64,000 bases of DNA from a virus (IMGVR_UViG_3300032323_003820:1-64000), one strand, 5' to 3'. Positions 1 to 33,022 are shown, numbered from the stretch's first letter. Notes: generated from the letters alone by a model not told the origin. A program made the numbers and translations.

Positions 1-210
1 ACTTCCTGAAGAACCACTTGTACCTGAACTTCCTGAAGAACCATCGGTTCCTGATGAACCAGAGCTTCCTGATGTTCCTGATGAACCAGAACTACCACTT
101 GTACCTGAACTTCCTGAAGAACCTGATGTACCAGAACTACCGCTTGTGCCTGAACTTCCATCTATTCCACTTGTTCCTGAAGAACCAGATGTACCAGAGC
201 TCCCATCACC
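1..210 (-). repeat. Coding Gly-Ser/Thr-Ser triplet repeat, tract 2 (continues beyond the window)
   Basis: Imperfect 9-nt units such as acctgaact/tcctgaaga encoding GSS/GTS on the minus strand. Confidence 0.9.
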
Positions 211-1965
211 ACCAGCAGCACCTTCCAAATTGATAGTCCAAGCCGAATAGGCTCCAATACCAATTATGTTTGCAACATCAACGACCATATTACCATTAGA
301 AGAGTTGTAACTAACAACCATTCCAATCATATGATTAGATAAATCATACGCAATTATTACATCTTGAGCAATACTGTACCCCAAATTAGTTCCAACCACA
401 AATGTACCTGTACTTCCTGTTTGGATAGTCAAAAGTGTTGATGAAGTTGTTCTATACAAATCACCTGAAAAACCAGATGTCCCACTAGAACCGTTTGTAC
501 CAGAACTACCACTAGTTCCTGAAGAGCCGTCCGAACCTGATGTTCCCGAACTACCCGAACTACCGCTTGTTCCTGAAGAACCACTAGAACCTGATGTACC
601 AGAACTACCGCTTGTTCCTGAAGAGCCACTAGAACCTGAACTTCCACTTGTACCAGAACTACCAGATGAACCAGATGTTCCGCTTGACCCTGAACTTCCA
701 CTTGTGCCGGAACTACCCGATGAGCCACTTGTTCCTGATGAACCAGAGCTTCCAGATGAACCATCAGAACCTGATGTTCCTGAACTACCTGAAGAACCGC
801 TTGTTCCTGAACTTCCACTCGTTCCTGCTCCATCAATTAAACCAATTGTTCCACCTGTTATTCCAATCGTAATATTATCCGGCATTACTCCTCCAATTTG
901 TGATGAAGTTGCGGTTCCAAGATATGCTGTTTCTTGAATACTATTGTCACCAAATTTTATCGTCGACCCACTTTGTGGTATAGTTATTCCTGATGGATTT
1001 ATTATGAAGGATAATGAACCTTGGTATTCATTTGGTTTTGTTGCATAAAATCTGAATTCAGTTGGGGTGCTTGTGGCACTGAAGGTACCTAAAGAGTACA
1101 TATCCATAAACGTGTGAGGTAAGTCCCCTATATTACCAAAACCTGATTCAGTTGTCCAACCTACACCTGCAAATCTTGCAATTGTTCCTACTTTGGTATT
1201 TGTTGGAAATTGTGCGGTACCTCCGGCATTTCGACCACCAAATTGACTAAATCGTGTGTCCCCATAACTATCGTTAACAATTCTACTTACTTGGTCATCG
1301 TGACCAGTTACGTGAATCATTCCACCAGGATTCACAGGTGGTGCCGAATACCCCCCATCATTTCCTATAATTTCTAAAACCGCGGCTCTATTTGGATTTT
1401 GATACGAAGATGTGATATAAACTTGTCCATTAGGGTCAACTCTAAAAACACCCAAATCTACTGTCTGTCCACTTATTCCTTCGACAATCAAACCACCTGA
1501 TTGAACCCTCAAAAAATTAAATAAATTACTCAAAGTTACAGTATTACCTGAAGGGGCGTCAGGTAATATTTTCAAACTGGCATTCCCTAAAATAACATCA
1601 CTCCAAGGATGTTCAGCTGAACCCAAAGAATTACCGCTAAAAAAAGGTAAGAAATTTCCATTAAGAAACATATCTCCATTTCCTGGAACTATGAGTAAAT
1701 TTTCATTTGTTATACCTGAAATTGTGTTACCCGATAAAACTATTGCATTTGTATAAATAGATTTTAAGGAATTCGATAAATCCCCTATTTGGTAAGTATT
1801 GTCCGTATCAGGAATCAAATCCTGATACATCACGCCAAACGGTTCACTTTTCCATAAATCCTGAACGTTTATATTATAGGTAACACCACTAGCAACAACA
1901 GCAATTATTGAATTATTGGTTGCTGCGGTTAAGTTAGGTAATCCTGATATTGGTAAATTTGGCAT
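1..1965 (-). CDS. Virion fibre-like protein with collagen-like Gly-X-Y (GSS/GTS) repeats; runs off the left edge (partial, >=655 aa)
   Basis: Not in the ORF track because it has no stop in the window. Manual translation from ATG at 1965 gives MPNLPISGLPNLTAATNNS... with an open frame to base 1, two GSSGTS tracts, and a TATTTATA motif 12 nt upstream. Confidence 0.85.
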   Translation of the reverse strand, partial: MPNLPISGLPNLTAATNNSIIAVVASGVTYNINVQDLWKSEPFGVMYQDLIPDTDNTYQIGDLSNSLKSIYTNAIVLSGNTISGITNENLLIVPGNGDMFLNGNFLPFFSGNSLGSAEHPWSDVILGNASLKILPDAPSGNTVTLSNLFNFLRVQSGGLIVEGISGQTVDLGVFRVDPNGQVYITSSYQNPNRAAVLEIIGNDGGYSAPPVNPGGMIHVTGHDDQVSRIVNDSYGDTRFSQFGGRNAGGTAQFPTNTKVGTIARFAGVGWTTESGFGNIGDLPHTFMDMYSLGTFSATSTPTEFRFYATKPNEYQGSLSFIINPSGITIPQSGSTIKFGDNSIQETAYLGTATSSQIGGVMPDNITIGITGGTIGLIDGAGTSGSSGTSGSSGSSGTSGSDGSSGSSGSSGTSGSSGSSGTSGSSGSSGTSGSSGSSGTSGSSGSSGSSGTSGSSGTSGSSGSSGTSGSSGSSGTSGSDGSSGTSGSSGTNGSSGTSGFSGDLYRTTSSTLLTIQTGSTGTFVVGTNLGYSIAQDVIIAYDLSNHMIGMVVSYNSSNGNMVVDVANIIGIGAYSAWTINLEGAAGGDGSSGTSGSSGTSGIDGSSGTSGSSGTSGSSGSSGTSGSSGSSGTSGSSGSSGTDGSSGSSGTSGSSGS
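470..830 (-). repeat. Coding Gly-Ser/Thr-Ser triplet repeat, tract 1 (~40 triplets)
   Basis: Minus-strand translation GTSGSSGTSGSSGSSGTSGSDGSS... Confidence 0.9.
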
Positions 1966-1990
1966 TTTATTTTATTTTATAAATATGTTT

Positions 1991-31500: not shown

Positions 31501-31519
31501 TATTTATGTAAAAAGATAA

Positions 31520-33022
31520 ATGTCAATACTTAGGTCATACGTTAATAGAAATAACACAATAATTTCAAATTCATATGCAAATACGGCACGAAATCCCGTT
31601 ATGCAGTTGAATTTTGGTTCTTCGGATTTAATTGCTCCAAGTTACGGTTATACCAGATTTATATTTGATTTGGATTTAGATTATTTGAGACAACAAATAC
31701 AAACCGGATATATTTCAACAGGTTGTACTACAGGTATGACCCATATTTTCCAAATGACAAATACATCATCTTTTGATGAGGATTTGATTAACGAAGATAT
31801 GAGTGATGGTAAAAGAAGAGCATCTTCATTCGATTTGATTTTGTTCAGAATACCTAAAACCTCGGGAACAACTGGTAACACTCAACCTTGGGACGAGGGT
31901 GTAGGCTACGATTATACAGAATCAAATAAAAACCAAAATGGTTTGATGGGTGGATTATATCCAATTACATATGTAGACCCGAGGTCATATTCAGACAGAC
32001 CTTCAAATTGGTATTTAACCACAAATGTATCAGAGTGGTCACAAGAGGGAATATACAACAACAGAAATTCGGGTGTTGTAAATTATTCCGCACTTACCAT
32101 TGTAGATAGACAACACTTTGAATTTGGTAATGAAGATATCAATTTCGATATGAGTGATGAAATCAACAATATCTTATTCGGGAACTTGACGGGTGTCACA
32201 GGATGGGGAATTGCATATCTACCTGATGTTGAAAATATAAGTGGATTATCTATTTCTTATAGTGTTGGATTCTTTACGAGACACACTCAGACTTTCTATC
32301 AACCATTCTTACAAACAACGTATGATGACTTGATTAAAGACGACAGAAATACGTTTGTCAAAAATCAAACTAATAATTTATACTTATACATTTATCAAAA
32401 TGGTGTACCTGTAAATTTAGATAATTTACCAACAGTCAGAATTGAAGATAGATTGGGTGACCCTGTTTCAGGTATGACATCATTATCTACATGTTTAAGA
32501 ACGAAAGGGGTTTATGAAGTTACAGTTCCAAATGGTTTTACGGGATATTCATCACCTTGTGAATTTTATGATATATGGTCAGGATTAACTTTGAATGGAC
32601 AATCTTTATCAAACGTTCAAAATCAATTCGTACTTCAAGATTATTCTGCTAGAGTACAAATAGGTACAAACACTAAAGAACCTGAAAAATTTGGATTCGA
32701 CTTTTACGGAATATTACAAAATGAAAAAATATTGAACACTGATATCAGAAAAGTTGGTGTAACTATTAAAAAGTCTTACAGTACACAACAACTATTACAG
32801 AACTTAGAATCTTTTTATCGTATCTACGTTAGAGAAGGTAATACTGAAGTTCAAGTTCAAGATTGGACCCCAATTAATAGGACACCTAATGAATATTATT
32901 TCATGTTTGATACAAGAGATAAGATTCCTAACCAATACTATGTTGATATCAAAGTTAACATAAGTGGTGATGTAGATACTTATAAGAAACAATTAACATT
33001 TCAAATTGTTAACAAAAAATGA
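31520..33022 (+). CDS. Virion structural protein (beta-rich)
   Basis: 500 aa; TATTTATG at 31501-31508; rich in [ST]GxT motifs. Confidence 0.65.
   Translation: MSILRSYVNRNNTIISNSYANTARNPVMQLNFGSSDLIAPSYGYTRFIFDLDLDYLRQQIQTGYISTGCTTGMTHIFQMTNTSSFDEDLINEDMSDGKRRASSFDLILFRIPKTSGTTGNTQPWDEGVGYDYTESNKNQNGLMGGLYPITYVDPRSYSDRPSNWYLTTNVSEWSQEGIYNNRNSGVVNYSALTIVDRQHFEFGNEDINFDMSDEINNILFGNLTGVTGWGIAYLPDVENISGLSISYSVGFFTRHTQTFYQPFLQTTYDDLIKDDRNTFVKNQTNNLYLYIYQNGVPVNLDNLPTVRIEDRLGDPVSGMTSLSTCLRTKGVYEVTVPNGFTGYSSPCEFYDIWSGLTLNGQSLSNVQNQFVLQDYSARVQIGTNTKEPEKFGFDFYGILQNEKILNTDIRKVGVTIKKSYSTQQLLQNLESFYRIYVREGNTEVQVQDWTPINRTPNEYYFMFDTRDKIPNQYYVDIKVNISGDVDTYKKQLTFQIVNKK

Follow-up and report, generated by a model that had tools for sequence, protein, structure and literature searches.

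Does a jumbo phage glycosylate its own fibres, and does a short peptide recurring in those fibres tell the enzyme where to act? The question is raised by IMGVR_UViG_3300032323_003820, a single linear IMG/VR virus record of 94,520 bp (G000; CheckV completeness 31%), the first 64 kb of which form the window analysed here. The original prediction for this stretch held that the tetrapeptide [S/T]-G-x-T is enriched in virion proteins and is the acceptor signal of adjacent cytoplasmic glycosyltransferases, the two making a self-contained virion glycosylation system. We find that enrichment in the window is limited to three fibre- or adhesin-like proteins, P1, P2 and P3 (Table 1), with capsid, portal and the rest of the proteome at chance, that it is restricted to particular lineages and specific in its residues, and that among relatives it co-varies with a glycosyltransferase of the type encoded at 8277 (8277-type). 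Whether [ST]-G-x-T is the acceptor or recognition motif of a phage-encoded cytoplasmic O-glycosylation, with an enzyme probably of the 8277 type, is in our judgement evenly balanced; sugar attachment, the residue that would carry the sugar and the enzyme that would start the chain are what we infer.

Motif enrichment in three window proteins

Strict sites, meaning S/T, G, any residue and T ([ST]GxT), were counted against composition-preserving shuffles of whole segments and of blocks of 60, 30 and 15 residues. P1 holds 9 sites in its non-repeat part (1.0-1.35 expected), P2 holds 11 in amino acids (aa) 1-620 (0.9-1.5 expected) and P3 holds 7 (0.57-0.95 expected), an 8-12x excess at p ≤ 2e-4 in each protein, while the remaining 118 open reading frames (ORFs) of the 94.5-kb record hold 11 sites against 12.4 expected. 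The hand counts behind the original prediction (9 in the non-repeat part of P1, 12 in the first 750 aa of P2 and 7 in P3) proved exact, and recounting again found no site in the ClpB/C-like protein, TerL, Gmd, the TonB receptor or the lipoprotein. Its attribution of enrichment to virion proteins at large held for P1, P2 and P3 but not for the capsid, the portal or other ORFs: the sites it had included from the major capsid protein (MCP), the portal tail and 27598..29781 are, like one in 50497..51345, single sites at chance level, that of the MCP lying in its insertion domain. The tail tube gene is outside the record.

Because the three proteins had been chosen for their motif, an unbiased enumeration of ~48,000 motifs with three fixed positions and a span of at most 5 residues was added for the carrier segments; SG.T ranked first (18 observed vs 1.68 expected, p = 3.6e-13), with TG.T in third place. 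When the positions were varied singly, position 1 admitted no residue but S or T, position 2 was G (enrichment of A being weak), position 3 was free and position 4 was T, for which S does not substitute; reversed and shifted versions of the motif were not enriched. In the window carriers and in G003, a complete relative of 321 kb and 399 ORFs, [ST]G.T was strongly over-represented (28 vs 2.67 and 36 vs 3.68), whereas [^ST]G.T was not (10 vs 12.1 and 16 vs 16.6).

Other candidate signals were rejected. G-x-T-[GA] as the driver is explained by the subset with S/T ahead of Gly, and neither N-x-[ST] nor [ST]G.S has independent enrichment (the latter 4 vs 2.6 outside the GSS/GTS tracts of P1); those tracts had been read as chains of a relaxed motif, a view that is not supported, and the strict motif is absent from them. 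Local composition was dismissed by the 15-60-residue block shuffles. At the sites the Ser codons come from both families and every Gly and Thr codon occurs, so the signal lies at the protein level and not in the DNA. The host-type sequon of Bacteroidota, D-[ST]-hydrophobic (as D-[ST]-[AILVMT]), is rarer than expected in P1-P3 (1 vs 6.7), which may reflect avoidance or an artefact of per-protein composition, and gave 7 vs 10.2 in a second count; the two motifs are indeed different, as had been claimed.

The carriers differ in architecture. P1, whose ORF is incomplete and runs off the start of the record, has none of its sites within the GSS/GTS collagen tracts; they lie at aa 26, 78, 83, 139, 165, 325, 332, 370 and 516. 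P2 combines a conserved module rich in Cys at its N-terminus (aa 1-620) with Pro/Thr linkers, a middle domain and a LamG domain at the C-terminus; all 12 of its sites lie ahead of aa 712. Its long mucin-type linkers between domains (aa 621-682, 835-880 and 908-995; TPTxTxTPT...) have no strict [ST]GxT and, judged by their composition, could be a second kind of O-glycosylation target. On its model (AlphaFold2 (AF2), predicted local distance difference test (pLDDT) 90.2), the first 270 aa of P3 are by fold a CBM96-like jelly roll, as indicated by comparison with CBM96 modules (VIA; 8wab_B, Z 16.1, root-mean-square deviation 3.0, 169 aligned; 7vbo_A, Z 13.7); Foldseek returned only Ig-like matches from the PDB and only uncharacterised relatives from BFVD. 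Each of the three resembles an adhesin or fibre part that faces outward. No signal peptide, N-terminal hydrophobic segment or membrane segment is predicted in any of them, and this lack of an export signal makes them compatible with a cytoplasmic acceptor.

Relatives, controls and the co-varying enzyme

With the motif fixed beforehand, all 399 ORFs of G003 were scanned. The strongest carrier is a 747-aa protein without a homologue in the window (G003:303064-305307 (-), equivalent to L205:3064-5307), with 12 scattered sites against 1.32 expected; its gene is outside the present record, it has no Pfam or PHROG match, and SG.T and TG.T were again among its top motifs in the unbiased enumeration. 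Excesses were also found in the collagen fibre (16 vs 3.8), the P2 homologue (18 vs 4.8), the P3 homologue (7 vs 0.62) and the tail sheath (5 vs 1.04, all outside its conserved C-terminal core). The proposed self-contained virion system is thereby narrowed to a few fibre and adhesin proteins and the outer domains of the sheath, and does not extend to the whole virion. All other G003 proteins together hold 83 sites against 132 expected, an under-representation that may reflect avoidance or an artefact of per-protein composition.

Phage T4, whose particle is not known to us to be glycosylated, served as a control and gave observed/expected values of 0/2.0 for gp34, 1/1.1 for gp12, 0/0.7 for gp18, 1/1.0 for Hoc, 6/2.1 for gp37 and 25/20.4 in total; since its fibres, sheath and Hoc show no excess, the motif is not a generic fibre or virion feature, and that explanation was rejected. 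Two adjacent proteins of 482 and 487 aa (L279:16269-19159 (-), in a record from a 401-kb relative) have 10-12 sites and were excluded as evidence, being tandem repeats whose unit holds SGVTS/CSGLTS (PSGVTS and CSGLTS). Their AF..C and C..LT periodicity is like that of BspA-type leucine-rich repeats.

Among homologues, sites come and go and shift position within loops. The 80 close P2 homologues have 8-13 sites each, in which S, G and T are invariant or S and T exchange at position 1, conservation exceeds that of the flanks, and x varies. P3 homologues (n = 105) hold 565 sites against 58.5 expected; 80 close ones mostly have 5-8, four of them fixed, and others slide by 3-4 residues (186 to or from 190, 317 to or from 320), giving chains such as SGYTGLT, or lie inside lineage-specific insertions. 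Distant members of the 150-strong P3 representative set are bimodal, with 0-1 sites in one clade of 27 rows and 2-8 in the others, so the P3 fold needs no motif. In the tail sheaths of G003 and G005, another complete relative, the sites are at different positions, the outer domains being too divergent for a reliable site-by-site alignment. The related-locus search, run with P0007, returned motif-rich relatives only. Across these comparisons, the motif behaves as a functional tag would and not as a requirement of the fold.

The gene that tracks this tag is of the 8277 type, which in G005-type phages lies directly beside the P2-like gene. P2-like proteins adjoining such an enzyme have 97 sites against 8.4 expected in 32 loci, and 26 distinct ones flanked by it have 87 against 7.0. 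In G004 (277 kb, 76% complete) the surrounding genes are kept, the 8277, 10793 and 12427 genes and the entire sugar-gene island are absent, and the P2-like, P3 and sheath homologues have no site; five further records, with a P2-like gene flanked on both sides by 8 kb or more of contig, have no 8277-type gene and, in all five, no site. The six enzyme-free records thus total zero P2-like sites with the gene neighbourhood present. At three sites common to all carriers, the enzyme-free proteins keep the Gly and have N/D/E/K/Q/Y/G instead of S/T. The wider clade around the enzyme-free proteins, sampled as 120 cluster representatives, holds 22 sites against 29.2 expected (no motif in 100 of the 120), with Gly in 359/360 aligned cells at the three sites; S/T stands at position 1 in 20/360 of these cells and in 66/78 of those from carriers. 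Homologues of the same fold thus have N/D/E-G at the aligned sites, and the fold dictates neither the S/T nor the T of position 4. Since Asn/Asp-Gly and Ser/Thr-Gly can replace one another as turn formers, the fold seems to need a turn only, with hydroxyl residues apparently kept only where the enzyme is present.

The 8277 product has a confident GT-B/GT4 fold in its model, which Foldseek matched to 6tvp GlgM, 3c4q MshA, 8dqd PglA and BshA (E values 1e-13 to 1e-11, template modelling scores 0.57-0.66). Its score against Pfam Glycos_transf_1 (17.3 bits) is below the cut-off of 26.4, and a search of PDB sequences with a profile of the family gave no match. From its distribution and position it is our candidate for a protein-directed, initiating transferase. 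G003 and G005, but not G004, have homologues of the 10793 and 12427 genes, which co-vary with the 8277 type among these three large genomes and have ~64-66% median identity in 48-71 related loci.

The original prediction had assigned the motif to the adjacent cytoplasmic transferases, including those at 24601 and 25658. Its idea of an acceptor signal keeps the tag-like behaviour and the co-variation with the 8277 type, and loses these two genes: they belong to a core cassette that adjoins the structural genes and is retained, syntenic and at 28-44% identity, in motif-free phages, so they cannot explain the motif and were rejected as its enzymes. Phages with the core transferases do not, then, generally share the enrichment. 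Whatever the acceptor of the cassette, it cannot be the [ST]GxT sites. The whole of it (24601-27592) encodes GT-B-like, GT2, 249-aa and 120-aa proteins and is kept in every relative examined, including those free of motif and island.

A proposed O-glycosylation and competing explanations

We propose that the phage-encoded O-glycosylation would take place in the host cytoplasm on a few outward-facing particle proteins, in the window the collagen-like fibre, the Cys-rich/LamG P2 and the CBM96 plus Ig P3, and in complete relatives also the tail-sheath outer domains and the 747-aa protein. The motif would be overlaid on loop-to-strand turns at which the fold requires only x-Gly, enzyme-free relatives having Asn/Asp-Gly there; its reader would be the soluble GT4-fold 8277 product, possibly with those of 10793 and 12427; and the variable island of fucosyl-, methyl- and acyltransferases would extend and decorate the sugar. 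In its widest form, which we hold tentatively and place slightly short of an even chance, the proposal is that [S/T]-G-x-T is an O-glycosylation sequon, not described so far, of jumbo phages with Bacteroidota-type hosts: a phage enzyme of GT4 fold would recognise it in the cytoplasm, and a rapidly evolving island for fucose/6-deoxyhexose, methyl and acyl groups would build the chain up into a variable glycan coat on fibres, adhesin-like proteins and sheath, with sites gained in loops like the spike glycan shields of animal viruses.

Several observations caution against this interpretation. The enzyme-free P2-like proteins are one clade (100% support in the Shimodaira-Hasegawa-like approximate likelihood ratio test, SH-aLRT) nested among carriers, so the co-variation amounts to a single loss event without replication, and the Fisher test on it ignores phylogeny; enzyme absence, in six records of which five are fragments and the sixth is the incomplete G004, holds for the neighbourhood and the contig. 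Fold neighbours of the 8277 product use small-molecule or lipid-linked acceptors and the protein bears no mark of protein direction. G005-type phages have a motif-free P3 despite the enzyme, so target sets differ between lineages. No isolate is known, and tblastn with P3 matched none of 50,697 records from isolated phages. The other points are structural: by DSSP of the model, the S/T-G of every one of the seven P3 sites is in coil and the T is at or beside a strand start, as a purely structural reading would equally predict; I/V comes next after 6/9 P1 sites, so the P1 signal may be partly a strand-start pattern; and elsewhere, as in the L279 repeat unit, [ST]GxT can be purely structural.

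These last points invite an alternative interpretation, namely that the motif is nothing but an ST-turn with Gly where a beta-strand begins, which the folds of this lineage favour, and that only shared ancestry links it to the transferase. The single enzyme-free clade, with its structurally equivalent Asn/Asp-Gly at the same sites, and the repeat proteins that hold the tetrapeptide as a repeat element are in keeping with it. We nevertheless consider it unlikely because at least five unrelated folds in the genomes prefer S/T...T and the other proteome does not, because T at position 4 and a hydroxyl at position 1 persist across long divergence and drift once the enzyme is gone, and because sites accumulate within lineage-specific insertions and the homologous parts of T4 show none. 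The statistics and conservation show selection, not its purpose, and protein is a presumed substrate of the enzymes here; a functional motif serving something other than glycosylation, such as phosphorylation or docking to another virion protein, to a component of the host surface or to an assembly chaperone, would account for both. Such a function is distinctly improbable in our view, given that the sole co-varying gene found is a glycosyltransferase beside the main carrier gene, that ~18 kb of soluble sugar enzymes have no other evident acceptor, and that no kinase was seen among the scanned proteins, which were not searched systematically for kinases.

It could also be that the substrate of the transferases is phage DNA, a small molecule or glycans of the host envelope, and that the motif is an adaptation to a host group differing between clades. 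DNA glucosylation and serotype conversion are the best-known roles of phage transferases. Both are options listed for four core transferase families of the large aquatic 'moraphages' (PMC12619734), and the peripheral transferases of O-antigen are likewise soluble, with a flippase or priming enzyme that the host could supply. This reading has, we think, only a small chance of being right: in diverse phages the 8277-type gene is the immediate neighbour of the gene for the main motif carrier, the carriers are not enriched in the host-type sequon, and the GT10, GT11 and NodZ-like families generally act on glycans, not on DNA.

Sugar-gene island, comparable systems and phage lineage

The stretch from 8277 to 26464 encodes at least 10 sugar-related transferases, several methyltransferases, Gmd, a hexapeptide acyltransferase and a DegT-type aminotransferase of short length. 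The part from 13137 is presumed to supply the extension and decoration steps of the glycan; it includes a GT11, two NodZ-like and two GT10 fucosyltransferase-type genes, and FkbM and other methyltransferases. At 18360-22284 Gmd adjoins the DegT-type aminotransferase (245 aa) and the hexapeptide acyltransferase, an arrangement that suggests a possible branch of the GDP-perosamine or N-acyl-perosamine type in addition to fucose; the ORFs scanned included no evident GDP-fucose synthase. Membrane segments are predicted in none of the ORFs between 5677 and 27592, so the island is without flippase, polymerase or priming transferase, which fits a soluble cytoplasmic acceptor, yet the host could supply these functions.

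Table 1 Coordinates of the carriers, sugar genes and other features in the window
Feature	Position	Strand	Basis or description
P1, collagen-like tail-fibre protein	1..1965	-	Pfam Collagen 9.7e-25; PHROG tail-fibre families
P2, 1220 aa	1991..5653	-	C-terminal LamG/ConA-like domain, Pfam Laminin_G_3 1.6e-23
GT4-like (GT-B fold) glycosyltransferase	8277..9488	+	AF2 pLDDT 90.7; Foldseek
Transferase, Glyco_tranf_2_5 and GT4 domains	10793..12430	+	Pfam
Transferase, GT2	12427..13140	+	Pfam
Variable glycan-tailoring island	13137..22949	+	Pfam; patchy in relatives
Core cassette	24601..27213	+	GT-B-like protein (24601), GT2 (25658), 26464 protein
P3, 500 aa, conserved	31520..33022	+	CBM96-like jelly roll (model) aa 1-270, then two Ig/FN3-like domains
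MCP	37148..38947		
Protease	40901..41623		
Portal	43094..44923		
TerL	44964..46721		

By analogy, the nearest characterised system is SgtA of Clostridioides difficile, which adds GlcNAc to Thr of the Gly-Pro-Thr repeats in collagen-like BclA3 (PMC7157674). Like the arrangement proposed here, with its G-x-T core and collagen-like P1, it involves a soluble cytoplasmic transferase and Thr (Ser being accepted) in Gly-x-Thr of a collagen-like surface fibre (PMC7157674). The differences are that SgtA is a GT-A/GT2 domain with TPR repeats whereas the co-varying enzyme here is GT-B/GT4, that S/T ahead of Gly is required here with G.T alone at chance, and that most sites here are in globular domains instead of collagen repeats. 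The GT2 proteins of the present record are 237-268 aa long or fused to a GT4 domain, and PF13414 (TPR_11, the family named in PMC7157674 and the only TPR family searched) was not found in G000, G003 or G005. Mycobacteriophages are described in PMC12619734, which cites Freeman et al. 2023 (PMC10527164), as encoding transferases, with glycans at the C-termini of capsid and tail-tube subunits. These too are tailed phages decorating their own particle in the cytoplasm with their own transferases, as proposed here from sequence; here, however, the capsid shows no more than chance, and a defined tetrapeptide marks fibres, adhesin-like proteins and the outer domains of the sheath.

Full-text literature searches found no published account of an acceptor motif in the glycosylation of phage virions. 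To our knowledge, self-glycosylation of the particle is established in tailed phages for mycobacteriophages only, and we know of no acceptor motif in tailed phages. The general O-glycosylation system of Bacteroidota, the likely host phylum, uses the three-residue sequon D-[S/T]-[A/I/L/V/M/T] on exported proteins outside the cytoplasm; the carriers here, by contrast, lack signal peptides and show no excess of that sequon in either count. Chlorovirus PBCV-1 has virus-encoded cytoplasmic transferases that build fucose-rich, methylated N-linked capsid glycans at a non-canonical acceptor motif, and proteoglycan xylosylation uses an O-linked, Ser-Gly-based site, Ser-Gly-x-Gly; the former differs in being N-linked and from a eukaryotic virus and the latter in needing Gly, not Thr, at position 4, and no homology evidence connects either to the present system.

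With a defined tetrapeptide and a candidate enzyme, the question could be addressed by cloning two or three genes, with no need to culture the host. If the proposal is true, it would assign a role to the sizeable sets of transferases described as core genes of big aquatic phages (PMC12619734) and yield a short tag with which recombinant proteins could be O-glycosylated in the cytoplasm, and a sugar coat on fibres and sheath would bear on host range, protease protection and dealings with polysaccharide-rich environments.

Since complete relatives are 295-326 kb (with terminal repeats in two), the record is a fragment of an uncultured aquatic jumbo phage of ~300 kb. Its capsid module is T4-like, and the isolates nearest by MCP are Microcystis and Flavobacterium phages at ~41% identity across half of the protein. 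The T4-type MCP has an extra ~340 aa ahead of its capsid-profile match (aa 343-576), and ~55% of it can be aligned to capsids of isolated phages. The lineage resembles the moraphages, large aquatic phages with predicted hosts in Flavobacteriia and four core glycosyltransferase families (PMC12619734). A late-promoter scan of the sequence with TATAAATA was uninformative (13 observed vs 8.2). Further along the window, 60115-63563 encodes a TonB-dependent receptor (Plug and barrel) followed by a 399-aa protein without a family match, and 54547-56553 encodes a double AAA+ chaperone of the ClpB/ClpC type.

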